64,000 nt of DNA from Candidatus Omnitrophota bacterium (GTDB lineage: Bacteria > Omnitrophota > Gorgyraeia > 2-01-FULL-45-10): assembly GCA_028715345.1 (NCBI GenBank), contig JAQUSB010000002.1, forward strand, positions 675 through 64,674. The letters are read 5' to 3'. The translations under genes were made by a program, and so were the position numbers. Of this stretch, positions 22,112 to 41,003 are shown one piece after another. The notes beneath the pieces were generated by a model, which searched no databases, was not told the DNA's origin, and saw only the letters and a list, made by a program, of their open reading frames with translations. Each line of letters begins with the position of its first letter. The stretch's first letter is position 1.

Positions 22112-22139
22112 TTGACATTTTTGGCTTAAGGGTTATAAT
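22112..22139 (+). promoter_or_regulatory. consensus sigma70 promoter for hppA super-operon
   Basis: TTGACA-16 nt-TATAAT. Confidence 0.55.
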
Positions 22140-22145
22140 ACTGCT

Positions 22146-22217
22146 ATAATCTGACAGACAACGACGTCTTCCAAAAGACCTCCCTTGTTAGGATGGTGCA
22201 GGAGGTCTTCTTTTTTA
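22146..22217 (+). promoter_or_regulatory. hppA 5' leader: AGAC-AACGAC-GUCU hexaloop hairpin + intrinsic terminator
   Basis: hairpin 22156..22169 (loop A1/G4); alternative GUCUU/AAGAC pairing; terminator AAGACCUCC...GGAGGUCUU (22175..22209) + U6; 35 nt before hppA ATG. Confidence 0.5.
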
Positions 22218-22251: not shown

Positions 22252-24576
22252 ATGGTTTATGGATTGACTTTTTTCGAACAGATCGCCATATGGAGCGTTC
22301 TGGGAGTATCTATACTGGGTTTACTGTATGCGCTCTTCCTGCGAAAACAGATATTGCTCGAGGATAAAGGCGACAACAAAATGATAGAGGTATGGAACGC
22401 CATCCGCGAGGGCGCGAACGCTTACCTTAAGAAACAGCTATTTTCCATCCTTCCTTTAATAGGCATACTTACATTCGCGCTATTCTTTTCCGTGTATATA
22501 GTCCCGCCGTCCGAAGAGGCGTTACAGCGCTTCGCCGGCCAGCCGGAGAATACGGTCAGGTTCATCATAGGTATAGGCAGGGCGCTCGCGTTCGTTATGG
22601 GCGCGATATTCTCGCTGCTCGTAGGACAGCTCGGTATGCGCATGGCGGTCCAAGGCAACGTCAGAGTAGCCCAGGCCGCGAAGAGATCGTTCGGGGACGC
22701 CCTCAGGATCGCGTATCGATCGGGCACCATCACAGGTATGCTCACAGACGGCCTCGGGCTTTTCGGAGGCACGATAATCTTCATCATATTCGGGGTCGCA
22801 GCGCCGGACGCGCTGTTAGGGTTCGGTTTCGGCGGAACATTGCTCGCGCTCTTTATGAGGGTGGGCGGCGGCATCTACACCAAGGCAGCGGACGTAGGGG
22901 CGGACCTCGTCGGTAAAGTCGAAGCGGGAATACCCGAGGACGATCCGCGCAACCCCGCAGTGGTCGCGGACTTAGTCGGTGACAATGTCGGCGATTGCGC
23001 CGGGATGGCAGCCGATATTTTCGAATCTTACGAAGTCACAATAGTCTCGGGCCTTATACTCGGGCTCGCGCTCTATCATATAACTCACAGGCTGGAATGG
23101 ATAGTCTATCCGCTTTTAGTCCGCGGCATAGGCGTGCTCTGCTCGATCATCGGCACTTACGCCGTCAAGGGCAGCCCGTCGAAGAGCGGCAACGCGATGA
23201 AAGCGATATTCCACGGCTTTCTCACGTCGGCGGCGATATCGATCGCTTTATTCGGCATTCTCGCATATGTTTACATGAACAAACTGCCGGGCGGCTGGTG
23301 GAGGCCTTTTCTGGCAACGGCTGTCGGAGTAGGTCTTGCGATAGCGATCGACCGCCTTACCGAATATTTCACCGGTACAGAAGGTAAACCGGTGCGCGAG
23401 ATCAGGAAGTCCACAGGCACGGGTTCGGCTACCACTATATTGTCCGGCATCGCGGTAGGATACGAATCGGCCGTCTGGTCGATCATCGTTATCGCTACGA
23501 CGATATTCTCATCCATCGTCATATTCGGCACAATACCCGGTATCGAGGGCGCGGCAAGGGTCACTTATATACTCTACGGCGTCGCGATGACAGGCATAGG
23601 CATGCTGACCCTTACGGGCAACAACGTGGCCATGGATTCGTTCGGCCCGATCGCGGATAACGCGAACGGGATAGGAGAGATGGCCTGGCACGGGAAACAG
23701 GATAAAGACACCAAGGACGCCCGCAAGATCATGGCCGATCTCGACGGCGTAGGCAATACCACAAAAGCGATCACCAAAGGAGTTGCAATAGGCTCGGCGG
23801 TTATCGCGGCTGTGGCGCTGTTCGGTTCATACATGGTCGACGTAAGTAAAGTCCAGGCGGCTTTAGGGATATTGCCGGCCGACCAGTTAAATTCGATAGG
23901 TATACGCGTATCGGTCCCGCAGGTCTTCGTCGGCATGCTGATCGGAGGAGCGATACCGTGGCTATTCTCGGCGTTCAGCATACAGGCTGTGGCGAGAGCC
24001 GCATCCCTTATTGTCCATGAAGTCAGGCGCCAATTCAAGCTCGGCGTCCTCGAAGGCAAAATGAAGCCCGATTATCAGCAGGCAGTATCGATCTCAACGA
24101 CCGCGGCGCAGAAAGAATTGGTAGGGCTTGCGGTCATAAGCATAGTGTCTCCTATAGTAGTAGGTTTAGTCCTCCAGGTCGAAGCACTCGGCGGATTCTT
24201 GGCCGGTATAATCCTGTCAGGCCAACTGCTCGCAGTATTTATGTCGAATGCCGGCGGGGCGTGGGATAACGCTAAAAAGACCATAGAAGACGAAGCCCGC
24301 AGCATAGAAAATAATACCGGTAAAGGATCCGAGCGCCACAAGGCGGCGGTAGTAGGGGATACGGTCGGCGATCCGTTAAAAGATACAGCGGGCCCGGCGC
24401 TCAATCCGATGATAAAAGTAGTCAACCTTGTTTCGGTAATAATCGCACCTATAATAGTGCAATACAATAAACTCGGCATAGGCGGCTGGGTAGTCGTTTC
24501 ATTACTCTGCGCATCTTTGGTCTGGGCAATACTCAAGAGTAAACGCCCGGCACCGGAATTGGCGCCGACAAAGTAA
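22252..24576 (+). CDS. hppA: membrane-bound proton-translocating pyrophosphatase, K+-independent type
   Basis: 774 aa; GGIYTKAADVGADLVGKVE, DNVGDCAGMAADIFESY and GNTTKA (Lys = K+-independent) signatures. Confidence 0.9.
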   Translation: MVYGLTFFEQIAIWSVLGVSILGLLYALFLRKQILLEDKGDNKMIEVWNAIREGANAYLKKQLFSILPLIGILTFALFFSVYIVPPSEEALQRFAGQPENTVRFIIGIGRALAFVMGAIFSLLVGQLGMRMAVQGNVRVAQAAKRSFGDALRIAYRSGTITGMLTDGLGLFGGTIIFIIFGVAAPDALLGFGFGGTLLALFMRVGGGIYTKAADVGADLVGKVEAGIPEDDPRNPAVVADLVGDNVGDCAGMAADIFESYEVTIVSGLILGLALYHITHRLEWIVYPLLVRGIGVLCSIIGTYAVKGSPSKSGNAMKAIFHGFLTSAAISIALFGILAYVYMNKLPGGWWRPFLATAVGVGLAIAIDRLTEYFTGTEGKPVREIRKSTGTGSATTILSGIAVGYESAVWSIIVIATTIFSSIVIFGTIPGIEGAARVTYILYGVAMTGIGMLTLTGNNVAMDSFGPIADNANGIGEMAWHGKQDKDTKDARKIMADLDGVGNTTKAITKGVAIGSAVIAAVALFGSYMVDVSKVQAALGILPADQLNSIGIRVSVPQVFVGMLIGGAIPWLFSAFSIQAVARAASLIVHEVRRQFKLGVLEGKMKPDYQQAVSISTTAAQKELVGLAVISIVSPIVVGLVLQVEALGGFLAGIILSGQLLAVFMSNAGGAWDNAKKTIEDEARSIENNTGKGSERHKAAVVGDTVGDPLKDTAGPALNPMIKVVNLVSVIIAPIIVQYNKLGIGGWVVVSLLCASLVWAILKSKRPAPELAPTK

Positions 24577-24586
24577 CTGTGATATA

Positions 24587-26032
24587 ATGATCCCGATGGA
24601 AAACAACTGTCTATTAGCCTGTGTTTTCGTCCCTGTCATAGGAGCCTTCGCACTTCCTTTGATAGGGAGGGTATCCGAGCTTGCCAGGAACCTGACGGCT
24701 CTTGCGCTCGTTACGGTATCGCTTGTAACATCACTCTTTCTTGCGCCGGCAGCCATTGCCGGGCATGTGATAAGCGTAAGTTATAGCCTTCCTCTCGGGT
24801 TCAATTTCATCCTTACCGCGGACGCACTCGCCGTATTCATGGCCGCAGCTTCTTCGCTCGTCGGCGCCATAATAGTCCTGTACTCTTTCGGATACATCAG
24901 CCACTACAATAACCGCAATGAATATTACCTGATGGTAACGCTTTTCCTCGGTTCTATGATGGGGCTCGTCTATTCCGGCAACCTCATTTTCATGTATTTA
25001 TTCTGGGAGATCACCGCCATAGCAAGCTGGCGCCTGATAGGATTTTTCCGGGAAAAGGAATACGTCCTGAAAGCGGACAAGGCATTTCTCGTAACGGTCT
25101 TCGGAGCTCTTGTAATGCTTTTGGGCTTCATCTATATCTATCAGGTCACGGGTTCTTTCGATCTTTCGGCGATAAAGGCCGCCTTTAAGAACAACGCAAT
25201 ACCCGATATAGCGGTAGCGTTGATACTCATAGGCATACTATCGAAATCGGCCACTCTGCCGTTCCACACATGGCTGCCGGACGCCGGCGTCGCGCCGTCA
25301 CCGGTCACAGCGCTTCTGCATGCCGCAGTCCTCGTCAAAATAGGCGTATACGTCTTCGCAAGGCTCTTCATAGCTACGTTCACTTTGAGCCAGATATGGC
25401 ATACGGTAGTGCCTGTCATAGCGGGCGTCAGCGCGCTCGTAGCGGCAGGGGCGGCGCTGGTCGAGACGGATATGAAGCGTATCATCGCGTATTCGACCGT
25501 AAGCCAGATAGGATTTATCCTTTTAGGTTTTGCCGTAAGTAACGAAGTGGGGGTAGTAGGGGCGCTTCTTTACATATTGATGCACGGGCTCGCTAAAGGC
25601 GGGCTATTTTTATGCGCAGGCATTGTCGAGCAGAATACAAAGACCAAAGATATAACAAAGATGGGCGGGCTCATCGCTACGATGCCGGTCACGGCCTTTT
25701 CATTCCTTGCGTGCGCGTTATCGGTAATGGGCGTACCGCCGTTCGGCGGTTTCTTCAGCAAATACCTCGTATTCTCGGGCGCGGCGACGAGCGGCAGTAT
25801 TATGATAACGAGTATATTTTTATTCGGTGCCTTCCTGACGCTGATATATCTATTCAGGATATTCAATATGATATTCCTGGGCGATCCGCAAAAACCGCCC
25901 GCAAAAGAGGGTTCAGGCGTAATGGTGCTTTCTGTGGCGATGCTCGCGGTCCTTTCGATAGCAGGCGGGATATTGATCAAATATCCGTCGGATTTTGTCC
26001 AGACGGCGGTAAAACAGATGATGGGAATTTAA
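24587..26032 (+). CDS. group 4 hydrogenase antiporter-like membrane subunit (NuoN/MrpD family) 1
   Basis: 481 aa; ~14 TM, NuoL/M/N-MrpA/D conserved helices (WLPDAGVAPSPVTALLHAA...). Confidence 0.7.
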   Translation: MIPMENNCLLACVFVPVIGAFALPLIGRVSELARNLTALALVTVSLVTSLFLAPAAIAGHVISVSYSLPLGFNFILTADALAVFMAAASSLVGAIIVLYSFGYISHYNNRNEYYLMVTLFLGSMMGLVYSGNLIFMYLFWEITAIASWRLIGFFREKEYVLKADKAFLVTVFGALVMLLGFIYIYQVTGSFDLSAIKAAFKNNAIPDIAVALILIGILSKSATLPFHTWLPDAGVAPSPVTALLHAAVLVKIGVYVFARLFIATFTLSQIWHTVVPVIAGVSALVAAGAALVETDMKRIIAYSTVSQIGFILLGFAVSNEVGVVGALLYILMHGLAKGGLFLCAGIVEQNTKTKDITKMGGLIATMPVTAFSFLACALSVMGVPPFGGFFSKYLVFSGAATSGSIMITSIFLFGAFLTLIYLFRIFNMIFLGDPQKPPAKEGSGVMVLSVAMLAVLSIAGGILIKYPSDFVQTAVKQMMGI

Positions 26033-26033
26033 C

Positions 26034-27866
26034 ATGACGGCTAACGTAATATTTTATCCGATAATAGTCCCGCTCGTAACGGCGCTTGCGCTCTTGGTCA
26101 CGCCTAAAAAGATGAAGTGGGGCAAGGAGATCGTCGCGATAGCCGGGACGGCCTTAAATCTGTTATTGGCCATAGCGCTATTTAAATCGAATATTTATTT
26201 CTCGGCCCCATGGTCGGGCTTCGGTATCGATTTTTCGCTCAAACTGTATCAATTCAGCTCATTCATCATCCTCGCCGCGGCAGGGTTCGCATTCTTAATA
26301 ACTCTGTATTCTACGGCTTCATTATTCAATAAAGATTACGCGAAACCGTTTTATGTTTACCTTGCGCTGTCGCTTTTAATGGTGAACGGCGCCGTCCTGG
26401 CCGACAATCTCGTCCTGATGCTATTCTTCTGGGAAGGCTTACTCGTAACACTATTCGGCATGATCACGATAGGGAATAAGCATGCGTTCAAAACTGCCAC
26501 AAAAGCGTTCATCATAGTAGGCATAAGCGATCTATTTATGATGGTCGGGATAGCGCTCGTGGCGTATCTTGGCGGGACGATAACGATATCGCAAATAAAT
26601 CTGACGACCGCGGGACTGGGAGGGTTGGCATTCATCTTCCTTATAATAGGAGCCATATCGAAGGCCGGATCGATGCCTTTCCATAGCTGGATACCGGACG
26701 CGGCAATAGACGCTCCGCTTCCTTTCATGGCGATACTTCCTGCGTCATTGGAAAAATTGCTCGGCATATACTTTCTGGCGCGCATCTCGCTCGATATGTT
26801 CGAACTGAACGTCCATTCGTGGGCGAGCACAACCTTGATGGTAGTGGGCGCTATAACGATACTTCTTGCCGTAATGATGGCGCTCGTCCAGAAAGATTAC
26901 AAGAGGCTATTGTCATATCACGCGATAAGCCAGGTAGGATATATGATATTGGGCATCGGCACGCTTGTGCCCGTCGGGATCGTGGGCGGTCTATTCCACA
27001 TGATCAACCACGCGATGTATAAGAGCTGCCTATTCCTGACAGGCGGTTCGGTCGAGAAGCAGGCAGGCACAACCGACCTGGCAAAGCTGGGCGGGATCGC
27101 GAAGAGCATGCCCGTCACGTTCATCTGTTTTATAATAGCGGCCGCGTCCATATCGGGCGTGCCGCCTTTCAACGGTTTCTTCTCCAAAGAGCTCGTCTAT
27201 GACGGGGCGCTGGAGCGCGGGATGATATTCTATGTCGCCGCTATATTGGGGTCGTTCCTTACAGCAGCGTCTTTCTTGAAACTCGGCCACGCCGCGTTTT
27301 TAGGCAAAAAGCAGGGTAATGCCGAGGTAAAAGAAGCTCCGATGAGGATGCTGATACCTATGATAACTATCGCGTCGTTGTGCGTACTGTTCGGGCTATG
27401 GAACGCGCTTCCTCTGAACAATCTTATTCAGCCTATACTTGGTAAAAGATTGGAAGGGCATAACTTCTCGGGCCTTCCGACAAATGCGCTATTGGTAATA
27501 GCTACGGTGGTGGTCCTGGCGCTGGCATTATTGAACCATATTTACGGAGTGAAGAAGACAGGTAAGGCGCTGAAAGCGACAGACCATATACGTTACGCGC
27601 CCTTACTCGGGCATCTTTACGACATGGCGGAGAAGAGATTCTTCGACCCTTACAACATAGGCCTGGACATAGTGAATTTTTTCGCGAAGATCGCGGCCTG
27701 GTTCGACAGGGCTATCGACTGGGTCTATAATATATTAGTCGTCAATGCCGCAAACTTGGTCACGGGCCTGATAAAGCGACTGCATACCGGGAATTATGGG
27801 TCATACATAATCTGGTCGCTGGCAAGCGCGGCCGTTATATTAATATTTTTGATAAGAGCCATCTAA
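26034..27866 (+). CDS. group 4 hydrogenase antiporter-like membrane subunit (NuoL/MrpA-like, long form) 2
   Basis: 610 aa; WIPDAAIDAPLPFMAILPAS motif plus C-terminal extension. Confidence 0.7.
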   Translation: MTANVIFYPIIVPLVTALALLVTPKKMKWGKEIVAIAGTALNLLLAIALFKSNIYFSAPWSGFGIDFSLKLYQFSSFIILAAAGFAFLITLYSTASLFNKDYAKPFYVYLALSLLMVNGAVLADNLVLMLFFWEGLLVTLFGMITIGNKHAFKTATKAFIIVGISDLFMMVGIALVAYLGGTITISQINLTTAGLGGLAFIFLIIGAISKAGSMPFHSWIPDAAIDAPLPFMAILPASLEKLLGIYFLARISLDMFELNVHSWASTTLMVVGAITILLAVMMALVQKDYKRLLSYHAISQVGYMILGIGTLVPVGIVGGLFHMINHAMYKSCLFLTGGSVEKQAGTTDLAKLGGIAKSMPVTFICFIIAAASISGVPPFNGFFSKELVYDGALERGMIFYVAAILGSFLTAASFLKLGHAAFLGKKQGNAEVKEAPMRMLIPMITIASLCVLFGLWNALPLNNLIQPILGKRLEGHNFSGLPTNALLVIATVVVLALALLNHIYGVKKTGKALKATDHIRYAPLLGHLYDMAEKRFFDPYNIGLDIVNFFAKIAAWFDRAIDWVYNILVVNAANLVTGLIKRLHTGNYGSYIIWSLASAAVILIFLIRAI

Positions 27867-27884
27867 TATCGAAAGGAAATTTAA

Positions 27885-29324
27885 GTGCCGTCTTTAATGA
27901 TCTTGATACCGCTATTCGGGGTGATAATATTAAACCTCGTATTCGCCGTGAACAGCCGGATGAAAAAGGCCGCGTTCTGGCTTGCGCTGGCAATATTCTC
28001 TCTGCAGGTCGTTGTCGCCGTATTCCACCACCCGGCGCTATGGAACGATTCGCTGGGCCGCATCGATTCGTTCTTAAATGTAAGCTTTTTCGTCGATCAC
28101 CTGAGCTTTATAATGTTCATCTGCATAGGCATGGTATCGATAGCCAGCCTTTTTGTAGCGCGTTACGGAATGAAAGATGAGGACGATATCTTTAAATTCA
28201 TAAACCTGCTCATTATGGCGTCGATAGGGATGAGCGGCATCGTAATGGTAAAAGACATATTCTCGCTTTACGTATTCATGGAAATAACGGCGGTATCGTC
28301 ATTTCTTTTAATAGCGTTCCCCAGGTCCCTGGAATCCCTTGAAGGTTCGTTCAAGTACCTTATCCTTTCGTCTATAGCGACCGTACTGATGCTCACATCC
28401 ATAGGTATATTGTTCCTTGCGGCGGGCGGCACAGACTTTGACGCTATCGCCGCTGCGATAGGGGCATCCTACGAGAACGCGCTTGTGCTTGCGGCGATAG
28501 GGCTGTTTATTTGCGGCCTATTCATAAAAGGCGGGCTCGTCCCGTTCCATGGATGGCTGCCGGACGCGTATACCGCGGCGCCGGCGCCGGTATCGGTGCT
28601 TTTAGCCGGCGTCGTTACGAAATCCGCCGGTATCTACACGATGATACGCATCACAACCTCGCTCCTGCCGCACTACCAGAGCGTAAATAATATTCTCATG
28701 CTGGTCGGGACGATATCCATATTCGCGGGAGCGCTGGCGGCGATAGGCCAGGATAACTTTAAACGCATGCTCGCGTACTCAAGCATAAGCCAGATGGGCT
28801 ATATCATCCTCGGCCTCGGGACAGGCACGATCCTCGGGATCGCCGGCGCGGTATTCCATCTTTTGAATCACTCGATATTTAAATCGCTTCTCTTTGTGAA
28901 TTCAGCCGCTGTGGAAAAAGAGATCGGCACCAGCGACATGAATAGGATGGGCGGGATATCGCAGAAGATGCCTGTGACCGGCACGACTTCGGTCATCGCA
29001 TTCCTTTCAACGTGCGGCATACCGCCGCTGTCCGGTTTCTGGTCAAAGGTAATAATAGTAATAGCGTTGTGGCAGGCAGGCCAATACGCTTACGCCTCGC
29101 TTGCGATAATAGCTAGCATCATAACTCTGGCCTATTTTCTTTCTATGCAGCGCCGGGTATTTTTCGGCAAATTGCGAGCAGGCCTTGAAAATCTTAAGGA
29201 TGCGGAGGGCGGGGTGCTGACGGTGTCGGTGGTTTTAGCGGCGCTTACTATAGGCATAGGCATATTCTTCCCGTTCGTTTTTAACACATTGATACTGCCC
29301 GTAAAGGAAATACTGGTAAGGTAA
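27885..29324 (+). CDS. group 4 hydrogenase antiporter-like membrane subunit (NuoM/MrpD family) 3
   Basis: 479 aa; GTG start after GAAAGGAAAT RBS; WLPDAYTAAPAPVSVLLAGV motif. Confidence 0.7.
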   Translation: MPSLMILIPLFGVIILNLVFAVNSRMKKAAFWLALAIFSLQVVVAVFHHPALWNDSLGRIDSFLNVSFFVDHLSFIMFICIGMVSIASLFVARYGMKDEDDIFKFINLLIMASIGMSGIVMVKDIFSLYVFMEITAVSSFLLIAFPRSLESLEGSFKYLILSSIATVLMLTSIGILFLAAGGTDFDAIAAAIGASYENALVLAAIGLFICGLFIKGGLVPFHGWLPDAYTAAPAPVSVLLAGVVTKSAGIYTMIRITTSLLPHYQSVNNILMLVGTISIFAGALAAIGQDNFKRMLAYSSISQMGYIILGLGTGTILGIAGAVFHLLNHSIFKSLLFVNSAAVEKEIGTSDMNRMGGISQKMPVTGTTSVIAFLSTCGIPPLSGFWSKVIIVIALWQAGQYAYASLAIIASIITLAYFLSMQRRVFFGKLRAGLENLKDAEGGVLTVSVVLAALTIGIGIFFPFVFNTLILPVKEILVR

Positions 29325-29326
29325 AT

Positions 29327-29830
29327 ATGACGATTATTAATATAGACAATGCGCTTTTGATAGTTACGGCCATAGCGGCCATCTGGACCGTAATGGGCAG
29401 GAGCCTCCTGAAAGCGACGATAGGCCTCGCCGTGACAAGCGCGGCGATATCGGTAATTATATTCAGGCTCGAGAGCCCGCTCGCGGCCGTATTCGAGCTT
29501 TCGGTCTGCGCAGGCCTTATAACGGCGGTGTTTGTCAGCGCCATAAGCCTCACAAAACCATTGACGCACAAAGAGATACTGTACGCCTCAAAGGACAGGA
29601 TGAAGCGGTATATTTATCTTCCAGTGATCCTTTTGGTATTAGGCGCGGCTTTGGCATTTGTCAAAATATGGCCGGGGCTGGTCATTGCGGCGCCGGCAGC
29701 GGCCTCACAGCCGGAAGCCCGATCATTACTGTGGGACTTCAGGCGTTTGGATATACTGGGGCAAGTTATAATTTTATTGGCAGGAGCTTTCGGCATAGTG
29801 TTATTATTCGGGGAGAAGAAGAACAAATGA
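29327..29830 (+). CDS. MrpB/MnhB-like membrane subunit (DUF4040 + MnhB-type)
   Basis: 167 aa, 4-5 TM; pattern LAVTSAAISVIIFRLESPLAAVFELSVCAGL typical of MnhB-N/DUF4040. Confidence 0.5.
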   Translation: MTIINIDNALLIVTAIAAIWTVMGRSLLKATIGLAVTSAAISVIIFRLESPLAAVFELSVCAGLITAVFVSAISLTKPLTHKEILYASKDRMKRYIYLPVILLVLGAALAFVKIWPGLVIAAPAAASQPEARSLLWDFRRLDILGQVIILLAGAFGIVLLFGEKKNK

Positions 29831-30117
29831 TCGCCTTCCTTATTCTTTTACTGTTAATATGCGGGGCTTATTGCATAGTCGTCACGCGAAGCATGATACG
29901 CGCCATAATCGGGATAGAACTTTTGATAAAGGCCGTTACGCTTCTTATAATAGCGGCGGGCAATATGACCGGCAGGACCGCGACCGCGCAAAGCCTGGCG
30001 ATCACAATAATCATCATCGAAGTAGTAGTGGCGGCTACGGCTGCCGGCATCGCGTTATGGGTATTCAAACGGACCGGCACGCTGGATGTACGGAATTTAA
30101 GGAATCTCAAAGGTTAA
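29827..30117 (+). CDS. NuoK/MrpC-like membrane subunit
   Basis: 96 aa, 3 TM; ATGA overlap with upstream gene; IIGIELLIKAVTLLIIAAG... NuoK-like. Confidence 0.6.
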   Translation: MIAFLILLLLICGAYCIVVTRSMIRAIIGIELLIKAVTLLIIAAGNMTGRTATAQSLAITIIIIEVVVAATAAGIALWVFKRTGTLDVRNLRNLKG

Positions 30118-30126
30118 GGACGATAA

Positions 30127-30459
30127 ATGGATAATATTTTACTGTCTCCTCCGCTGGCTTTTCTGGTAGTCCTGGCAGCCATGCTGGTATTTTCGAGGCT
30201 TTTATCTGCTCTTGCATGTAAACCGAAAACTCACGGCGAAGGGGAAGGCAAATCGTACGCATGCGGGGAAGAGGCCCCTACGGGTTTGGTCCAGCCCGAT
30301 TACAGCCAGTTCTTTCCGTTCGCGTTCTTCTTCACGCTTTTACACGTATTTACGCTGACTATCGCGACGGTTCCCGCGCTCACAGGCGGATCGTTCATCG
30401 TAGCGGTAATTTATATATTGACCGCGATAACCGGCATGGTAATTCTTTTCAGGAGATAG
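30127..30459 (+). CDS. NuoA/MbhI-like small membrane subunit
   Basis: 110 aa; TM1 then KSYACGEE loop reminiscent of NuoA YECG motif, then 2 TM. Confidence 0.4.
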   Translation: MDNILLSPPLAFLVVLAAMLVFSRLLSALACKPKTHGEGEGKSYACGEEAPTGLVQPDYSQFFPFAFFFTLLHVFTLTIATVPALTGGSFIVAVIYILTAITGMVILFRR

Positions 30460-30462
30460 GAT

Positions 30463-30912
30463 ATGGGTTTGGTCCATAAGATAGTTACATGGTCGAGAAT
30501 AAAATCCCCGTGGATAATACACTTTAACACGGGCGCATGCAATGCCTGCGATATAGAAATAGTCGCGGCGCTCACCCCGCGTTACGATATCGAGCGCTTC
30601 GGTATACAGCTCAAAGGTACACCGCGCCACGCCGATGTGCTCGTCTGCTCTGGCCCGGTGACGAAGCAGATAAAATGCAGGCTGAAGAGGATCTACGACC
30701 AGATGCCGGAGCCGAAATTCGTCGTAGCGGTGGGGACGTGCGCGTGTTCGGGCGGCGTTTTCGACGGCTGTTACAACGTGGAGTCTGGCATTGATAAAGT
30801 GATACCCGTTTCCGCGTATATACCCGGATGCCCCGCGAGCCCCAAGGCGATAATAGACGGCGTAGTGAAATTACTGACCGGCCTCGAAGCGAAGGAAGCG
30901 AAAGCGAAATGA
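30463..30912 (+). CDS. [NiFe] hydrogenase small subunit (NuoB/MbhJ family)
   Basis: 149 aa; CNACDIE ... GTCACSGG proximal Fe-S cluster Cys pattern. Confidence 0.8.
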   Translation: MGLVHKIVTWSRIKSPWIIHFNTGACNACDIEIVAALTPRYDIERFGIQLKGTPRHADVLVCSGPVTKQIKCRLKRIYDQMPEPKFVVAVGTCACSGGVFDGCYNVESGIDKVIPVSAYIPGCPASPKAIIDGVVKLLTGLEAKEAKAK

Positions 30913-32601: not shown

Positions 32602-33536
32602 TGGGATTGTTTTACATGCTGGTCTTCCCGGGATTCATATTCTTGAGCGTATTCGGCATGGCAGCCGAATATTGCGACAGGAAGCTTTACGCGAGACTGC
32701 AGAACAGGGTAGGCCCTCCGTGGTTTCAGCCTTTGGCGGACTTCATAAAACTGGTGTCCAAGGAAGAGATAATACCCGAGGAAGCGAACCCTTCGATGTT
32801 CAAGATCATGCCCGTACTCGCCCTGACCGCGACGATCACAGCATTTTTCTACATACCGGCCTGGGGTTATAAAGCGTTATATTCTTTCAACGGCGACCTT
32901 ATAGTCGTTCTGTATCTTCTGACAATACCTACGCTGACATTCTTCCTCGGAGGGTGGTATTCGACTTCACTGTATTCGAAGATCGGCGCGGTAAGAGCGC
33001 TCACCCAGTTATTCGCTTACGAAGTCCCGCTCCTCATGAGTATCCTGGCCCCGGCGCTTCTGGCAAATTCCTGGTCGCTGAGCGAGATCGCAAAATTTTA
33101 CGCCCAGCACCCGGTATATTGGTTCTTCAACCTGCTTGGCTTCGCCATATCGATGATATCGCTGCTCGGCAAACTCGAAAAAGTCCCGTTCGACATACCC
33201 GAAGCGGAGACGGAGATAGTGGGCGGCACTTTTACCGAATACGGCGGGAAACTGTTGGGGCTATTCAGGCTCGGCATAGACATAGAGGCGATCGTGGGCT
33301 CCGCGCTTTTAGCGGCCGTATTCCTGCCGTTCGGCCTGGGATTACCGCCGGTAGCGGGATTCCTACTGTTCGTCCTTAAGGTTATGGGCGTCATCTGCAC
33401 GTTATCGATACTGCGAACGATCTTCGCGCGCTTACGCATAGACCAGATGATGGCTTTCTGCTGGAAGGTCCTGGCGCCCCTGGCTTTTGTGCAGTTATTT
33501 ATCGATCTCATATTAAAATGGATACCGCTCAAATGA
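32598..33536 (+). CDS. NuoH/MbhM/HyfC-like membrane anchor subunit
   Basis: ATG 32598 (ATGA overlap with large subunit); 8 TM; RVGPP-type N-terminus (LQNRVGPPW). Confidence 0.75.
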   Translation: MMGLFYMLVFPGFIFLSVFGMAAEYCDRKLYARLQNRVGPPWFQPLADFIKLVSKEEIIPEEANPSMFKIMPVLALTATITAFFYIPAWGYKALYSFNGDLIVVLYLLTIPTLTFFLGGWYSTSLYSKIGAVRALTQLFAYEVPLLMSILAPALLANSWSLSEIAKFYAQHPVYWFFNLLGFAISMISLLGKLEKVPFDIPEAETEIVGGTFTEYGGKLLGLFRLGIDIEAIVGSALLAAVFLPFGLGLPPVAGFLLFVLKVMGVICTLSILRTIFARLRIDQMMAFCWKVLAPLAFVQLFIDLILKWIPLK

Positions 33537-33910
33537 TCCGCCCCGGGAAAATGTTAAAACAGGTGCTCGATTCGATCTTTAGGAAACCCGCTACAACGAA
33601 TTATCCCTTCACAAAGGCCGTAATGCCGGATAAATTCAGGGGAAAGATAATATTTCACCCGGAAAAGTGCATAGGCTGTAAGATGTGCATGCGCGATTGC
33701 CCGGCGGGCGCCATCCAGATCCGGAAGATAGGAGATAAAAAATTCGAATGCGAGATCGATCTGGGCAAATGTATTTATTGCGCCCAGTGCGTAGACTCCT
33801 GCTTGAAGAAAGCGCTCGAAACGACAAAAGAATTCGAGCTCGCGGCCCTGGAAAGGAATAAGCTTAAGGTAACTTACCATGCCGACACTGGAGAAGTATC
33901 TAAAGAATAG
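33518..33910 (+). CDS. 2x[4Fe-4S] ferredoxin subunit (NuoI/MbhN-like)
   Basis: CIGCKMCMRDCP and CIYCAQCVDSC motifs. Confidence 0.75.
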   Translation: MDTAQMIRPGKMLKQVLDSIFRKPATTNYPFTKAVMPDKFRGKIIFHPEKCIGCKMCMRDCPAGAIQIRKIGDKKFECEIDLGKCIYCAQCVDSCLKKALETTKEFELAALERNKLKVTYHADTGEVSKE

Positions 33911-34388
33911 GTTCGCGAATGCTAAAAAGATCGCTCTTCTTGCTATCGGCTCGGAGCTCAGGGGAGATGACGCGGCCGGCCTCCTTGTCGCTGATAACGT
34001 AAAGAAACTGCTCAAAACCTCAAACCGTAGATTCAAGATATTCAACGGCGCGACGGCGCCGGAAAACCTCACGGGCGACATCAAACGGTTCAACCCATCC
34101 CATATACTTTTACTCGACAGCGTAGACTTTAAAGATAAACCCGGTTCGATCATAGTCTTAAACCCCCGCGACATAGGCGACGGGGTGTCATTCTCTACCC
34201 ATAAGATGCCGGCCAAAATCCTGATGCGCTATTTTTATGAGTCTATCGATTGCGATCCCATATTGATAGGCATCCAGCCGCTTTCAATAAATTTCGGAGC
34301 AAAACCGTCCGGGGCTGTGGTCAGCTCGGCCAAAGAGGCGGCGGCCGCGATCGTAAAGTCATTGAAGGCTTTGCCGAAGCAAGGATGA
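33879..34388 (+). CDS. hycI: hydrogenase maturation endopeptidase (HycI/HyaD family)
   Basis: 169 aa; ALLAIGSELRGDDAAGLLVA metal-binding motif. Confidence 0.7.
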   Translation: MPTLEKYLKNRFANAKKIALLAIGSELRGDDAAGLLVADNVKKLLKTSNRRFKIFNGATAPENLTGDIKRFNPSHILLLDSVDFKDKPGSIIVLNPRDIGDGVSFSTHKMPAKILMRYFYESIDCDPILIGIQPLSINFGAKPSGAVVSSAKEAAAAIVKSLKALPKQG

Positions 34389-34391
34389 AAA

Positions 34392-34634
34392 TTGACAAAA
34401 GCTTATAAGTGGATTAAAATAGGTGGATTATTATCATTTATCCCGATAGCCATGGCCGTGGGCCCTCTGGCGGGGTATTTTGCCGCAGATTACCTTGAAA
34501 AGAAGTTCAATTTTCCCGGTTTCACTTCGGCTATATTCATAATAATAGGTTTTACCGCGAGCACCATAGAGACCGTGAAGATAATACGCCTGGCGCTCAA
34601 GACAGAGAAAGAGATGGATGGAAAACACGTTTAG
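34392..34634 (+). CDS. AtpZ-like small membrane protein preceding ATP synthase genes
   Basis: 80 aa, two TM helices, Gly-rich, basic C-terminus. Confidence 0.4.
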   Translation: MTKAYKWIKIGGLLSFIPIAMAVGPLAGYFAADYLEKKFNFPGFTSAIFIIIGFTASTIETVKIIRLALKTEKEMDGKHV

Positions 34635-34893
34635 GTGGGTCTTAGGGTTCGGTATAGGCGCGGCGTGGTCGTGCGCAAATTTATATTTTACGACAAATAT
34701 ATTAAAGATAAGCGTACTCAAAAAAGAGCGGGCAAAATTAACGGCGCTTCTGCTTCTTAAATTCCCGGTCCTTTACCTGGCAGGCCTTCTTATATTACTC
34801 TCGAAAGTCTTCCCGGTCGCGAGCCTTTTGACCGGACTTACGATCGTTATAATAATAGCGGGGATACGAAGATTATGGCCGAAACAGGCGTAG
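34618..34893 (+). CDS. ATP synthase protein I-like (AtpI/AtpR family)
   Basis: 91 aa, 3 TM, position directly before atpB. Confidence 0.4.
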   Translation: MENTFRWVLGFGIGAAWSCANLYFTTNILKISVLKKERAKLTALLLLKFPVLYLAGLLILLSKVFPVASLLTGLTIVIIIAGIRRLWPKQA

Positions 34894-35642
34894 CAAAAAC
34901 TCCGGAACTCCCGAATCTGGTAACGATCCTGGCGGAGAAATTCCACGGCAGCCCGTTCGCGTCATTTTTGATCGCGTGGGAAAACGTGATATTCTCTTTG
35001 ATAATAATCGCCGCTATAGCGATCACGGCATACGCGGCATCCCGCAAAACAGCGCTCATACCCGGCCGCCTGCAGAGCCTGTTCGAAATGTTCGTCGGCG
35101 GCGTGGACGATTTCGTTTGCGGCATCATAGGGCACGACGGCAGAAAATACGTTCCTTTCATAGGCACGCTATTCATATATATTTTATGCATGAACTTGTC
35201 TGGGCTCGTCCCGTTCATAAAAGCGCCTTCGGCGAGCTGGTCGACGACGCTGGCGCTCGCGATATGCGTATCGGTTTATACGCTATACGCGGGTTTTTCG
35301 TCGATGGGATTCGTGGGTTTTGTCGACCACCTGGCGGGCAGGCCGCGCGGAATAGTCGCTTTCCTGGTCTTTATACCGGTAATGATGTTTTTCCTGGAAA
35401 TGGTTTCTCTTTTATTCGTACGGCCCTTAAGCCTGTCACTTCGTCTTCGAAGCAATATATGGGGGGACGATATGCTTCTTGCCGTATTCGCGAGTTTTGG
35501 GCTGAAAGGGCTGGCGCTCCTTATATTCAATTCGATAATGGCGATAGTGGTTTCTATAGTGCAGACGCTCGTATTTTGTCTTTTGACGACGATATATTTT
35601 ACGCTGATATTGAGTCACGAAGAAGAAAGTACGGCTAAATAA
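34875..35642 (+). CDS. atpB: F-type ATP synthase subunit a
   Basis: 255 aa; LSLRLRSNIWGDDML matches conserved a-subunit Arg helix. Confidence 0.85.
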   Translation: MAETGVAKTPELPNLVTILAEKFHGSPFASFLIAWENVIFSLIIIAAIAITAYAASRKTALIPGRLQSLFEMFVGGVDDFVCGIIGHDGRKYVPFIGTLFIYILCMNLSGLVPFIKAPSASWSTTLALAICVSVYTLYAGFSSMGFVGFVDHLAGRPRGIVAFLVFIPVMMFFLEMVSLLFVRPLSLSLRLRSNIWGDDMLLAVFASFGLKGLALLIFNSIMAIVVSIVQTLVFCLLTTIYFTLILSHEEESTAK

Positions 35643-35654
35643 AAAGGGGGTATT

Positions 35655-35885
35655 ATGGATTTCAGATCGATGCTTGCAATAGGATTGCCGCTCGGGCTCG
35701 GTATCGCGGCTTTCGGATCGGCAATGGGGCTGGGAAAAGCGGTAGCGGCGGCAATGGACGCCACGGGACGCCAGCCTGAAGCTGCGACGAAGATATTGAT
35801 CAATATGGCCACCGGATGCGCGTTCATAGAAGCGCTGACCATATACGCGCTCGTATTCGTTTTCGGCCTTGCCGGAAAGATCTAA
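35655..35885 (+). CDS. atpE: F-type ATP synthase subunit c (H+-type site)
   Basis: 76 aa; GRQPE loop; ion-site helix AFIEALTIYALV (E-A-L-T, no Ser/Thr pair, helix-1 Gln absent). Confidence 0.9.
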   Translation: MDFRSMLAIGLPLGLGIAAFGSAMGLGKAVAAAMDATGRQPEAATKILINMATGCAFIEALTIYALVFVFGLAGKI

Positions 35886-35906
35886 AACTCCGCTGACAGG
35901 TAAAAA

Positions 35907-36401
35907 ATGGAACTACTGAAACTCTTAAGCGCAAATGAAATAGTCGCGCAGGTAATAACATTCCTGCTCTTGCTGTTTTTGATGAAACGGTTCGCGTGGA
36001 AACCGTTCCTCAAGACGCTCGATACCAGAAAAGAGCGCATCGCTTCGGAGCTCAAAAGGATAGAGGCCGCTAAAGCCGAGGTGAATGGCCTTAAAACCGA
36101 TTACGAATCTAGGCTCGCTTCCATCGAGGCCGAAGCAAAAAACAGGATCCGCGCCGCTGTCGAAGAGGGCAGGAAGTCTGCCGAAGATATCCGCCGGCTC
36201 GCCAGGGAAGACGGCGAGAGGATATTCGCAAAAGCCCAGGAGAGCATAAAGGCGGAGGTAGCGAAGGCCGAGGAAGCGCTTAAGGATAAGATAGTCAACC
36301 TGACGATAGACGTGGCATCCAAGGTAGTGCAGGAACGGCTGACCGAAGAAGACGACAGGGCAATAGTGGAAACGTTCATTAAAGAGATGGAAAAGAAATA
36401 A
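35907..36401 (+). CDS. atpF: F-type ATP synthase subunit b
   Basis: 164 aa; one TM then long charged helix. Confidence 0.8.
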   Translation: MELLKLLSANEIVAQVITFLLLLFLMKRFAWKPFLKTLDTRKERIASELKRIEAAKAEVNGLKTDYESRLASIEAEAKNRIRAAVEEGRKSAEDIRRLAREDGERIFAKAQESIKAEVAKAEEALKDKIVNLTIDVASKVVQERLTEEDDRAIVETFIKEMEKK

Positions 36402-36955
36402 TGGATCGCGACATACTGGCCAAACGATACGGCGACGCGTACATGGCCTTCGTAAAAGAAGGGTGCGGGCTGGAGAAAGGCGTTACCGACCTGCATAACG
36501 TGAAACGCATACTGCTCGACAACCCGGAGCTCAACGGATTTTTGCTGACGCCCGGCATAGATAAGCAGGAGAAGTTCCAGGTGCTCGAGAATGTCGTCCG
36601 GAACGGGTTCTCGGAAGAAGTCATATATTTCCTGCGGCTTCTCATAGATAAAGGGCGGTTCGATAAATTCAGCGATATGGCCAATTACGTCAGGATCATT
36701 TATTCCCACGGCATCGAAGCCGACGCGCTCCTTAAGGTAAGTTATCCTCTCGGAACGGATACGATCAGGCGGATCAAAAGCGGAATAGAAAATAAGTTAA
36801 ATAAAAAATTACACTTGTATATAGAGCTGGATTCGGACCTTCTCGGCGGTGTTTACCTGAAGATCGAAAATATACTTATCGACGGATCGGTAAGAAAACG
36901 CCTTGAAGATATGAGATCGAAACTTTTGGCAATGAAGGTGGTATATGGCAATTAG
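36401..36955 (+). CDS. atpH: F-type ATP synthase subunit delta (OSCP)
   Basis: 184 aa; position b-delta-alpha; its presence argues standard F-type, not N-type. Confidence 0.75.
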
Positions 36956-38465
36956 ACCCGAGGAAGTAACCTCTATAATAAAGAAGGAGCTGGAGAAATA
37001 CAGGACGCGCCTGCGCGTCGAATCCATAGGAACGGTCCTGCAGGTAGGCGACGGCATCGCGCTTGTATATGGCTTAGATGACGTAATGGTAGGCGAACTG
37101 GTCCAGTTCCCGGGCAATATAATGGGCATAGTCCTGAACTTGGAAGAGGACAAGGTCGGCATAGTCATCCTCGGCTCGGAGAAGAACATCCGGGAAGGCG
37201 ATATAGTCAAAAGGACGGGGAAGATAGCTCAAGTCCCCGTAGGCAAAGCGCTCCTCGGCAGGGTCATAAACGCACTGGGTATGCCGATAGACGGCAAAGG
37301 GCCCATAGCGACCAATAAATACCGGCCCATCGAATCGCCCGCGCCGACCATCGTACAGCGCCAGCCCGTCAAAGAACCGCTGCAGACGGGCATCAAAGCG
37401 ATCGACTCTATGATACCGATAGGGCGCGGACAAAGAGAGCTGATAATAGCAGACAGACAGACCGGCAAGACCGCCATTGCCATAGATACGATAATAAACC
37501 AAAAAGGCAAAGGCGTCTATTGCATATATGTAGCGATAGGCCAGAAGATGTCCAGCGTCGTTGCCATAAGCGAAGTGCTGGAAAAAGCGGGGGCAATGGA
37601 ATACACGATAATAGTAAGCGCGTCTTCCAGGGCGACTGCATCCATGCAATATATAGCTCCATACGCCGGATGCGCGATAGCCGAAGAGTTCATGTATGCC
37701 GGCAAACACGTCTATGTAGTCTACGACGACCTGTCGAAACACGCCCAGGCTTACAGGCAGTTGTCGCTTCTTTTACGCAGGCCGCCGGGCAGGGAAGCAT
37801 ACCCGGGAGATATCTTCTACCTGCATTCAAGGCTCCTGGAACGGTCGGCTAAGCTAACCGATGAGCTGGGCGGCGGATCGCTCACTGCTATACCTGTCAT
37901 CGAGACACAGGCAGGAGACCTTACGAGTTACATACCCACGAACCTTATATCGATAACCGACGGCCAGATATACCTCGAGACGGACCTCTTCTATTCCGGC
38001 GTGAGGCCGGCCATCAACGTCGGCCTTTCGGTGTCGCGAGTGGGCGGCAGCGCCCAGACGAAAGCAATGAAACAGGTCGCCGGCAGGCTGCGCATAGACC
38101 TCGCCCAGTACAGGGAGCTCGTGGCATTCACCCGGTTCGGCACAGAACTCGATAAAGCGACGCAGGCGCAGCTGACGCGCGGGGCGCATATGGTAGAGAT
38201 ACTCAAACAGCCTCAATACTCACCGCTCCCTATGGCAAAACAGGTAATGATAATCTATGCGGGAACGAACGGGTACCTTGACGACCTGCCTATCCCGGCC
38301 GTCTTAAGATTCGAATCGGAATTCTTCGTTTTTATCGATGCCAAATATTCCGACCTTGAAAAAGAGATCGAGGAAAAGGGCGCGCTCGACGACGCTCTAA
38401 AAGCAAAGCTCGACAACGCGATCTCAACATTCAAAAGAAAATTTAAGGAAACCCATAAAGTATGA
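36945..38465 (+). CDS. atpA: F-type ATP synthase subunit alpha
   Basis: 506 aa; GDRQTGKT Walker A, classical alpha N-terminus. Confidence 0.95.
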
Positions 38466-39316
38466 TACAAAGTTTCAGGCAGTTAAAAGACAGGATAAAG
38501 TCGATCGAAAGCACGCGCAAGATAACGCGCGCCATGGAAATGGTCTCTGCCGCGAAACTTAATAAGGTAAAAAGCGCGTTTTTTTCTTCGAAGAATTATT
38601 TCGCGCGTACGGAACGTATATTATTCGATCTGTTATCCGACCTCGAACCCGCGGACCATCCGCTGCTTGAAAAAAGGAAGGCCAAGAACGCGATAGCTCT
38701 GGCGGTCATCGCGTCCGACACCGGTTTATGCAGCACGTATAACAACAACGTCATAAAGCTCGCCAAAGATTTTGCCGACCGGTTCGATAGAGAGCGCGTA
38801 AAAATAATAGCCGTCGGGAAAGAGGCTTTTTCGTATTTCAAAAAAGAAAATTACGGGATAAATAATTTTTACTTGGGCATGCGGGGTAAGTTTTCCGAAG
38901 AGATCGCCGCAGACATGACCGGCACGCTTGTAAAATTGTTCACAGGCGGCGAGGCTGATGAAATTTATATTGCCTATACTCATTTCAGCCCCAACCTGCG
39001 CCACAAGCCTGTCGTAGAAAAATTCCTGGATATCGAATACGCTCATAAGGAAAAACGGCACTACATCCTGGAACCGGATAAAGAAGCCATATTAAATGAA
39101 CTTATATCGAAATATCTGGCGGATAAGATACGGGTAATATTACTCGATTCGTTCACAACCGAGCATTCCGCGCGCATGCTCGCTATGAAGCTCGCTACGG
39201 ATAATGCCAACGAGCTCATAGATACATTAACGCTTTTGAAGAACAAGGCCAGGCAGGCGGCTATAACAAAGGAAGTCCTTGAAATAGCCAATTCCGCCGA
39301 GGCCCTTAGAGGTTAA
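38462..39316 (+). CDS. atpG: F-type ATP synthase subunit gamma
   Basis: 284 aa; [34 protein letters not shown]-terminus. Confidence 0.9.
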
Positions 39317-40732
<1,416 letters not shown>

Positions 40733-40733
40733 C

Positions 40734-41003
40734 TTGGCCTCATCGTTCCGTCTGAACATAACCATACCGGACAAGGTCGTTTTCGACGGGGAAGCGTCGA
40801 GCTTAGTGGTGCCGGCCGAGAAAGGCTACCTCGGCGTCCTGGCACACCACGCCCCGATAATAGCAAGATTGAAGCCGGGGAAGATAACGCTGCAGAGCCC
40901 CGACGGCAAGACATCGGCCTTCGATCTCAAGACGAACGGCTTTCTCGAATTCTCCGAGAACAGGGCTACCCTGCTGCTCGATTCCCTCGATATCCAGTCA
41001 TAA
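40734..41003 (+). CDS. atpC: F-type ATP synthase subunit epsilon
   Basis: 89 aa, TTG start; N-terminal beta-sandwich pattern. Confidence 0.8.
   Translation: MASSFRLNITIPDKVVFDGEASSLVVPAEKGYLGVLAHHAPIIARLKPGKITLQSPDGKTSAFDLKTNGFLEFSENRATLLLDSLDIQS

Follow-up and report, generated by a model that had tools for sequence, protein, structure and literature searches.

In a 64-kb stretch of DNA from the metagenome-assembled genome of an uncultured Candidatus Omnitrophota bacterium (the window, in which all positions are counted), 23 genes follow one another back to back on the + strand at 22252-41003, behind a consensus promoter and a short leader with a terminator hairpin. They encode a membrane pyrophosphatase (hppA), a group 4 [NiFe] hydrogenase of 11 subunits with its HycI-type maturation endopeptidase, and a complete F1Fo ATP synthase preceded by two small membrane proteins (Table 1). 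Genes were identified from open reading frames (ORFs) together with Pfam and NCBIfam matches, which upheld both the run of consecutive + strand genes and the gene identities proposed in a first-pass annotation of this DNA. The 24 genes counted there come down to 23. The mechanically called ORF 29859-30134 was rejected as a nonsense frame, the real NuoK-like gene lying at 29827-30117. The earlier gap range of -32 to +21 nt stands. With refined starts for the NuoK-, NuoC- and NuoH-like genes, the gaps measure 10, 1, 18, 2, -4, 9, 3, -4 and -8 nt from hppA to the hydrogenase large subunit and -4, -19, -32, 3, -17, -19, 12, 21, -1, -11, -4, 3 and 1 nt from there onward to atpC, and GC content is even across the region and its junctions.

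Table 1. Positions of the features of the window, with the evidence by which each was recognised
Position	Strand	Feature	Evidence or remark
22112..22139	+	sigma-70-type promoter	TTGACA-16-TATAAT, 12/12
22121..22150	+	overlapping TG-extended promoter variant	10/12
22146..22217	+	leader RNA	mini-hairpin, intrinsic-terminator hairpin, T-run
22156..22169	+	mini-hairpin	AGAC-AACGAC-GTCT, hexaloop with A1 and G4
22175..22209	+	terminator hairpin	AAGACCTCC...GGAGGTCTT (9 bp), then T-run to 22217
22252..24576	+	hppA, predicted K+-independent H+-pumping membrane pyrophosphatase, 774 aa	Pfam H_PPase 5e-237
24587..26032	+	antiporter-like subunit 1 (ant1), NuoL/HyfD/MrpA-N-like, 481 aa	Pfam Proton_antipo_M 2e-74; NCBIfam
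26034..27866	+	antiporter-like subunit 2, NuoL-like, 610 aa	Proton_antipo_M; NCBIfam NuoL
27885..29324	+	antiporter-like subunit 3, MrpD/NuoM/NuoN-like, 479 aa	Proton_antipo_M; NCBIfam
29327..29830	+	NuoJ-like small membrane subunit, N-terminal half MbhD/MbsD-like, 167 aa	weak Pfam Oxidored_q3, MbhD
29827..30117	+	NuoK/MrpC-like subunit, 96 aa	NCBIfam NuoK 1.4e-8; Pfam Oxidored_q2 on orthologues
30127..30459	+	NuoA/ND3-like subunit, 110 aa	profile against PDB
30463..30912	+	hydrogenase small subunit, NuoB-like, 149 aa	Pfam Oxidored_q6 6e-32
30909..31385	+	NuoC-like subunit, 158 aa from internal ATG	Pfam Complex1_30kDa 7e-23; start backed by orthologue gene calls
31378..32601	+	[NiFe] hydrogenase large subunit, 407 aa	Pfam Complex1_49kDa, NiFeSe_Hases
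32598..33536	+	NuoH-like membrane anchor	Pfam NADHdh 6e-79
33518..33910	+	NuoI-like 2x[4Fe-4S] ferredoxin subunit	Pfam Fer4 family; two CxxCxxCxxxCP motifs in translation
33879..34388	+	HycI-type maturation endopeptidase	Pfam HycI 9e-13
34392..34634	+	AtpZ-like small membrane protein	Pfam ATPase_gene1 6e-5, under curated cut-off
34618..34893	+	second small membrane protein, AtpI-like candidate	no family match
34875..41003	+	atpB, E, F, H, A, G, D, C, complete F1Fo ATP synthase	Pfam, translations, orthology
40734..41003	+	atpC, epsilon, 89 aa	beta-sandwich only, without C-terminal helical domain
41043..45180	+	PCC domain, HAD hydrolase and two radical SAM genes	overlaps -4, -11, -44 nt
6027..6740		GAF-ANTAR regulator	Pfam ANTAR 3e-22 plus GAF
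about 6790..6850		less typical leader before nadE	
11614..11652		mini-hairpin plus terminator leader before glutamine synthetase (GS) type III	upstream P1 hexaloop GCAC-GTGGAA-GTGC
13969..14015		mini-hairpin plus terminator leader before gltB	
56387..56423		mini-hairpin plus terminator leader before nfnA (nfnA-nfnB-gdh)	
60227..60259, 60300..60348		two mini-hairpin/terminator leaders before second ANTAR gene	
60379..61074		GAF-ANTAR paralogue	63% identical to first

The large subunit carries both Ni-Fe ligand motifs expected of a group 4 [NiFe] hydrogenase intact (L1 RICGICSHSH and L2 DPCFSCTDR) together with a C-terminal extension for proteolytic maturation, and Pfam completes the group 4 set with NuoB-, NuoH- and NuoI-like subunits, antiporter-like subunits and a maturation endopeptidase. 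As both motifs, the extension and HycI are all present, the enzyme is taken to be a real hydrogenase rather than an Ehr/Mbx-type derivative, and it is predicted to be catalytically competent. Its closest chain of solved structure is MbhL of the P. furiosus membrane-bound hydrogenase (MBH; 6CFW_L, E 6e-101), followed by HycE of E. coli formate hydrogenlyase (7Z0S, E 2e-78), with complex I NuoD also behind MbhL, and a homology search returned a 100% identical NCBI protein labelled 'MAG: Candidatus Omnitrophica bacterium', although a query of the contig index for the exact sequence of the large subunit gave no match. As in MBH, the electron donor is probably ferredoxin, since the locus encodes no additional module for electron input.

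The label Mrp-type, given to this hydrogenase in the first-pass annotation, is imprecise. No MrpE, MrpF or MrpG (MbhA-C) is found among the ORFs at 24587-34388, every one of which was assigned to another subunit, and the membrane arm consists of three antiporter-like subunits plus NuoJ-, NuoK-, NuoA- and NuoH-like ones, so the inventory is that of an 11-subunit complex I with a Ni-Fe site. Antiporter-like subunits number one in MBH, two in MBS and three in complex I (review PMC8165549). The match of the second antiporter-like subunit to the 615-position NuoL model (E 1.4e-76) spans residues 4-607 and model positions 3-610, C-terminal extension included. Profile searches against the Protein Data Bank (PDB) matched the N-terminal half of the 167-aa NuoJ-like subunit to MbsD (2e-9) and MbhD (2e-7), with NuoJ overall at 0.12. 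The 110-aa subunit at 30127-30459, for which a Pfam scan gave no match, matched only ND3/NuoA (NdhC) chains in such searches, over its full length (E 0.014-0.37), and is present in all of the 80 related loci described below whose contig extends that far.

The hppA product carries the motif GNTTKAITKG, with Lys12.46 and Thr12.49, a pair of coupled substitutions by which K+-independent H+-pyrophosphatases are recognised (PMC10897367, citing Belogurov and Lahti 2002), and this signature agrees with the type assigned to it earlier; the protein is predicted to be a K+-independent H+-translocating pyrophosphatase. Most hydrogenase-adjacent hppA copies in relatives bear the same signature. Elsewhere in the window, a phosphofructokinase (47896-49008) reads GGDGT, where we take the Gly to stand in the place of the Asp of pyrophosphate (PPi)-dependent enzymes, plus PKTIDND, with a Lys that is presumably typical of PPi-dependent enzymes; its phosphoryl donor bears on where hppA's PPi comes from.

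Subunits a, c, b, delta and epsilon of the ATP synthase were recognised by Pfam, and atpA, atpG and atpD from the translated sequences and from tblastn matches to orthologues annotated by Pfam. Both small membrane proteins before atpB are kept in relatives. The c subunit reads ...FIEALTIY... and has an H+-type site without the Ser/Thr (Gln) Na+ ligands familiar from the Ilyobacter tartaricus c-ring, and the F1Fo ATP synthase is predicted to be H+-coupled. Given the hppA signature, this c-subunit motif and the lack of an MrpEFG-type Na+ module, pyrophosphatase, hydrogenase and ATP synthase are all predicted to use protons. The short epsilon subunit is common to all Omnitrophota and Margulisiibacteriota relatives with a complete atpC ORF, with 82-96 aa in 10 such ORFs (L002, L007, L008, L012, L017, L023, L033, L038, L057 and L079; L-numbers denote related loci or assemblies carrying a homologue of the hydrogenase), and it measures 171 aa in the Phycisphaerales locus L010. 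The C-terminal domain of epsilon inhibits ATP hydrolysis in other bacteria, and as it is missing here, the ATP synthase can probably run backwards easily.

The 3' end had been placed at 41003, which the sequence downstream does not bear out. No hairpin terminator follows atpC, only a 39-nt T-rich spacer, after which the PCC, HAD and two radical SAM genes continue to 45180 before a convergent helicase gene is reached. As no terminator follows atpC, these four genes are possibly co-transcribed with it, and the transcription unit, if single, would probably hold 27 genes and run to 45180.

Recurrence of the gene order in related loci

In order to place the arrangement among relatives, the large subunit was scanned for in one genome per GTDB species, and 80 loci with 70-91% identity were obtained from Omnitrophota, Phycisphaerae/Sedimentisphaerales and other Planctomycetota, Elusimicrobia, Margulisiibacteriota, Kiritimatiellae, Spirochaetota and others. 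The 12 hydrogenase genes stand in identical order in every locus, as far as the contigs reach. The same 12-gene cluster type in Ca. Velamenicoccus archaeovorus is reported as HydDB group 4g (PMC10066038), and with a large subunit 72% identical to that of this organism (L047) and the same cluster, the window's hydrogenase probably belongs to group 4g, a placement made indirectly, through likeness to the V. archaeovorus enzyme; this indirectness counts against the reading set out below. Group 4g enzymes are biochemically uncharacterised (10.1101/536078).

A synteny search had been proposed for the hppA/hydrogenase/atp adjacency, and the adjacency does recur across species and phyla. L001, L002, L003, L008 and L023 show the full hppA-hydrogenase-atp order, and so does a further assembly, L081, which also has the permease upstream and the PCC/HAD/radical SAM genes downstream. 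The gap between hppA and ant1 is 10-19 nt in the first five and 53 nt in L081, and hycI and atpZ overlap or lie no more than 18 nt apart in the window, L001, L002, L007, L008 and L012. The PCC/HAD/radical SAM genes come after atpC in L007, L008 and L081. In L083 (3051-6722), L004 and L005 they follow hycI directly, with no atp genes there, so the atp block is present or absent as a unit in close relatives.

Among the 44 species-level loci with both flanks readable, the hydrogenase stands alone in 23, hppA is adjacent in 18, atp genes are adjacent in 10, and both are in seven. Five of these seven have the window order, one has hydrogenase-hppA-atp (L034) and one atp-hydrogenase-hppA (L010). Where hppA is adjacent, it either precedes the hydrogenase genes on their strand or follows them, in codirectional or convergent orientation. 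The linkage states are spread over Omnitrophota, Phycisphaerae/Sedimentisphaerales, Elusimicrobia, Margulisiibacteriota and Spirochaetota and are scattered on a rough neighbour-joining tree of the large subunit, with the full order in two separate clades (the tree carries no support values and is indicative). Linkage of hppA, hydrogenase and atp genes is not obligatory, and the hycI/atp junction is not under strict constraint. Seven Planctomycetota loci (L010, L022, L042, L056, L064, L069 and L071) have a highly divergent pyrophosphatase downstream of hycI, convergent with the hydrogenase genes in 6/7, which shares 31-32% identity with the window's hppA, reads GNTFKATAKP at the motif and may be a distinct subfamily that was recruited independently.

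In L082, an 88%-identical relative, the insert at the hycI/atpZ junction (13093-14609) holds an unknown 239-aa gene and an NYN-domain gene, and a Y1 transposase (21071-21224) comes after atpC. In L049 and L057, an ORF with a HypC-like MCxxxP start and then a radical SAM CxxxCxxC region lies between hycI and atpZ and may encode a maturation-related fusion protein.

Promoter, leader and possible ANTAR-type control

The promoter and hairpin that the first-pass annotation had placed before hppA (22112..22217) are both there. The promoter matches the consensus at 12/12 positions, of which our own arithmetic expects about 0.007 by chance per 20 kb on both strands, and an equivalent consensus promoter sits at the same place in L002, L003 and L081; it is followed by the 9-bp hairpin and T-run. 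Within the region, terminator-like matches are at chance level (17 found vs 21.0 expected) and all those on the + strand are intragenic, in keeping with the earlier statement that there is no internal terminator. Promoter-like matches number 27 against a shuffle expectation of 21.7.

Relatives in which the parts stand separately have leaders of their own. Directly before ant1, a consensus promoter and an AGAC-hexaloop-GTCTT...terminator leader are present in L024, L025, L031, L044, L066, L073 and L075, and other loci without an upstream hppA have different leader hairpins before the hydrogenase operon. A leader of this kind, with a consensus promoter of its own, also stands before atpZ in L033, L038, L049, L057 and L060, where 170-4851 nt separate hycI from atpZ. 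The window, L002 and L003 have just one leader of this type, located before hppA, and their internal junctions leave no space for another. As the separate leaders of the relatives are gone here and only that of hppA remains, separately controlled units would have been fused behind one leader, and the comparison argues for this fusion as the simplest reading. A sense-strand hairpin with a T-run occurs in 31/56 regions upstream of the first cluster gene, and in 4/56 of their reverse complements.

In an alignment of twelve of the leaders, GTCTT is invariant at the foot of the terminator stem on its 5' side, AGAC lies 5-6 nt upstream of it, and 7/14 stem pairs show compensatory changes. A covariance model of this leader (R1) has one match in the window, the hppA leader (43.5 bits, E 1e-4), which is itself a training sequence. 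Its new matches in relatives lie before atp operons, before a P-type ATPase gene adjoining ant1, before sigma-factor-like and amino-acid-permease-like genes, and before ammonium transporter (amt)/P-II and glutamate dehydrogenase (gdh) genes. R1 did not match L081 and matched L082 only marginally, so the AGAC mini-hairpin is not universal even in the window's clade. Rfam returned no known RNA family, either for the whole window at the gathering threshold or for the leader at E up to 10, with chance-level matches only. Other Omnitrophota and Margulisiibacteriota have alternative, conserved leader terminators upstream of ant1 (L012, L038, L045, L049, L057, L060 and L065, and also L047, L067 and L079), either CCAGAGAA...TTCTCTGG, often after an AGAGAA repeat, or of the type CCCACCTGG...AGGTGGG; these may reflect either one control in variant form or distinct systems.

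A hexaloop mini-hairpin with A1 and G4 is the signature of substrates of ANTAR antiterminators, which mostly act on nitrogen genes (PMC3369931). The hppA leader has such a loop, and in the related leaders loop position 1 is A or G and loop position 4 is G, the latter in 19/20 leaders tabulated by eye. Two GAF-ANTAR genes lie within the window itself. Upstream of hppA the window holds nadE, a porin gene, amt, P-II, GS type III, gltB, a gltD-like gene and a permease gene, and further downstream NfnAB-like genes, gdh and the second GAF-ANTAR gene. Several of these genes are preceded by leaders with a consensus promoter and then a stem-4/5 hexaloop hairpin with loop G4 (Table 1); the P1 hairpin is clear for the GS leader only. 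The mini-hairpin/terminator combination was found at 5 distinct intergenic sites on the + strand vs 2 intragenic sites on the - strand, using our own loose terminator finder, whose 173 window calls are mostly false positives and served only for this strand comparison. The NfnAB/sulfide-dehydrogenase-like pair (56459-58762) adjoins gdh behind an ANTAR-like leader and could link ferredoxin/NADPH balance to the same regulon.

In L031 and L075, moreover, the hydrogenase operon with its leader comes immediately after ANTAR homologues, and in L073 the distance is 2 kb. As amt, P-II, GS-III, gltB, nadE or porin genes adjoin the hydrogenase cluster in several other Omnitrophota (L025, L031, L045, L073, L019, L060, L020 and L075), the hydrogenase/nitrogen-gene neighbourhood is recurrent. 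The attenuator seems to be part of a regulon of ANTAR-like antitermination that includes nitrogen-assimilation genes as well. Several features of the hppA leader itself sit uneasily with this. Its mini-hairpin ends 4-5 nt before the terminator arm and does not overlap it, so that both can form together, and a second hexaloop hairpin was not found by eye at 22166-22210; on both grounds the classical ANTAR mechanism is not a clean match for this leader. The overlap is present in L003, L024, L031, L073 and L075 and in the GS, gltB and nfnA leaders of the window. The fold is unremarkable, with a minimum free energy of -18.3 kcal/mol and a z of -1.46 vs shuffles, and L081 has the promoter and terminator with no mini-hairpin. 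ANTAR control of the hppA leader is a well-motivated hypothesis. Its wider form, in which the hydrogenase, H+-pyrophosphatase and ATP synthase of Omnitrophota stand in one ANTAR regulon with ammonium uptake, GS/GOGAT and GDH and are fused here behind one leader, is offered tentatively, as possible rather than probable.

Proposed operon fusion, its alternatives and what the arrangement would mean

We consider it moderately likely that the region is a lineage-specific operon fusion, in which three proton-using converters are placed under one promoter and read-through of the leader terminator is the regulated step. Co-transcription is inferred here from the spacing and from the comparison of relatives. 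Transcription would start at the consensus promoter at 22112-22139 and then meet the short leader with its intrinsic terminator, with the GAF-ANTAR antiterminators of the window as the likely regulators of read-through. Reduced ferredoxin from fermentation or acetogenesis would be oxidised at the Ni-Fe site to yield H2 while the complex-I-type arm exports protons, the H+-pyrophosphatase would add to the same gradient using biosynthetic or glycolytic PPi, and the H+-F1Fo ATP synthase would make ATP from the gradient or reverse when ATP is plentiful.

A number of observations weigh against a single unit of this kind, and most of them are also what would be expected if three independent tandem units lay side by side, with promoters in the 3' ends of the preceding genes and an adjacency that reflects compaction, strand bias and loose selection for co-location. 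The 64-kb window has nearly all its genes on the + strand, so shared orientation alone is uninformative, and overlapping or near-touching genes are usual in this genome, including unrelated ones such as the PCC/HAD/radical SAM genes, so tight spacing is weak evidence of a functional operon. That spacing continues into these last four genes (41043-45180), which have no obvious bioenergetic role. Promoter-like sites of 11/12 lie inside the region at 27703, 29923 and 34392, and one of 10/12 at 24559, which puts such matches at both junctions (24559-24588 and 34392-34420). Many relatives have a promoter and leader of their own for the hydrogenase and atp units, and the hycI/atp junction tolerates inserts (two genes in L082, a permease in L003) or the absence of atp genes (L083, L004 and L005). 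On closer inspection, the 24559 site has its -10 element placed across the start codon of ant1. The 34392 site (TTGACA-17-TAAAAT, 11/12), which falls exactly on the hycI/atpZ junction, is formed by the TTG start of atpZ and conserved YKWIKIGG codons; it is kept in L001 and L002 and absent from L007, L008 and L012, would initiate within atpZ past its conserved N-terminus, and is probably incidental to the coding sequence. Both junction sites are judged probably incidental, and promoter-like matches as a whole are about as frequent as chance predicts. Where the junctions are tight, the separate promoter-plus-leader that relatives have before ant1 and atpZ has been lost, and the window order with 10-53 nt junctions is found in six assemblies. 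Three independent units are regarded as rather unlikely.

Even with a fusion, the energy flow might run the other way, with ATP or PPi hydrolysis building the gradient and the hydrogenase drawing on it to reduce ferredoxin with H2. Glutamate synthase, the Wood-Ljungdahl pathway or other reductions would then receive low-potential electrons, and a co-regulation with nitrogen metabolism would be explained. Group 4 hydrogenases are in principle reversible, the epsilon subunit lacks its C-terminal domain, and the neighbourhood is one of nitrogen assimilation (amt, P-II, GS-III and gltB/gltD) with a shared ANTAR-like leader type; related Omnitrophota are predicted acetogens (PMC10066038). The sequence does not set the direction, however, the closest characterised relatives (MBH and Ech) evolve H2 in vivo, and no feature specific to H2 uptake was identified in the locus, and we judge reverse operation unlikely, though still a serious rival. 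It is less probable again that the hairpin at 22175-22217, instead of being a regulatory attenuator, terminates the upstream permease gene or ends a small RNA made from the 22112 promoter, the downstream genes being reached by leaky read-through or another start. The hairpin is A-rich upstream and T-rich downstream and so could act bidirectionally, the mini-hairpin and terminator can coexist with no obvious alternative fold, and L081 does without the mini-hairpin. Yet the hairpin lies beyond the consensus promoter, which itself comes after the permease stop codon (22099), the order promoter-hairpin-first gene is found in >15 loci whatever lies upstream, ANTAR genes adjoin such leaders, and with only 35 nt from the T-run to the hppA start there is no room for another promoter. 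Finally, the source is a metagenome-assembled genome, and a chimera at the junctions had been named as something that would undo the arrangement. Both junctions recur in independent assemblies (L001, L002, L003, L008, L023 and L081), the flanking permease and PCC/HAD/radical SAM genes do so in assemblies from different studies (L001, L002, L008, L023 and L081), and GC content is even across the junctions. As the full order recurs in independent assemblies, a chimera is excluded, and a meaningless one-off juxtaposition is scarcely credible.

Operon fusion thus remains the favoured reading, and its hydrogenase can be set beside known systems. Like P. furiosus MBH (group 4d), which has the closest solved large subunit, it has a NuoB/C/D/H/I-like core and an MbhD-like segment. 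MBH differs in having one antiporter-like subunit and a Na+ module, MbhA-C, equivalent to MrpEFG (PMC8165549), whereas the window complex has three antiporter-like subunits, one of them a full-length NuoL-like protein, plus NuoJ-, NuoK- and NuoA-like subunits and no MrpEFG. Against 11-subunit complex I (NuoA-D and NuoH-N), the inventory corresponds one for one (three L/M/N-like subunits, J, K, A, H, B, C, D and I), in the gene order L-M-N-J-K-A-B-C-D-H-I rather than A-B-C-D-H-I-J-K-L-M-N; the window's NuoD homologue, unlike that of complex I, keeps the Ni-Fe cysteines and a cleavable C-terminus, HycI is encoded, and nothing quinone-related was found for the complex. E. coli formate hydrogenlyase and hydrogenase-4 (Hyf, which also has three antiporter-like subunits) are group 4 [NiFe] enzymes too, and HyfB/HyfD models match ant1 and the two following antiporter-like subunits below cut-offs, but the window has no formate dehydrogenase partner, its NuoC- and NuoD-like proteins are separate, and NuoA- and NuoJ-like subunits are present.

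Group 4g membrane-bound hydrogenases are reported from Ca. Velamenicoccus archaeovorus, Ca. Saelkia and Ca. Gorgyraea (PMC10066038; PMC8542988). The V. archaeovorus hydrogenase stands alone, unlinked to hppA or atp genes, and these two papers, which list group 4g hydrogenases, HppA and ATP synthases each in Omnitrophota genomes, do not describe linkage of the hydrogenase to hppA or ATP synthase. The 16-subunit group 4g complex 'Hun' of Atribacteria was considered as a counterpart and set aside, as it differs in its AsrAB-like and MrpEFG-like subunits (10.1101/536078). The leader resembles those of the ANTAR regulons of EutV, NasR and AmiR, with promoter-proximal terminators preceded or overlapped by an A1/G4 hexaloop mini-hairpin, ANTAR-domain genes nearby and, in those regulons, targets mostly in nitrogen metabolism (PMC3369931). 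It differs in that the window's targets include an energy-conservation operon and in the single, non-overlapping hexaloop hairpin before hppA. A 2025 review of antiterminators names no ATP synthase, hydrogenase or pyrophosphatase among their targets. In the open-access literature we found no account of hppA, hydrogenase and ATP synthase genes lying together, as the first-pass annotation had supposed, and no description of the fused operon or of its shared leader. The components are all of known kinds, and the novelty lies in their arrangement, in how it recurs and in the regulation that it probably has.

Group 4g hydrogenases are widespread in uncultured anaerobes among the Omnitrophota, Planctomycetota, Elusimicrobia and Margulisiibacteriota, and their repeated coupling to an H+-pyrophosphatase and an H+-ATP synthase points to a testable role, that of a proton-coupled ferredoxin:H+ oxidoreduction feeding, or fed by, the same gradient. 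A Ni-Fe site joined to the full inventory of the complex I membrane arm offers a comparison point for the origin of complex I from hydrogenases. If the regulon proposed above is real, the proton-motive machinery would be switched with nitrogen (or 2-oxoglutarate/redox) status through GAF-ANTAR proteins, which would make it the first ANTAR regulon over core bioenergetic complexes and would give a physiological handle on group 4g hydrogenases. The shared attenuator points to a joint control of energy conservation and nitrogen assimilation through RNA in these bacteria with small genomes, an idea that is testable without culture, using purified ANTAR proteins and short RNAs.

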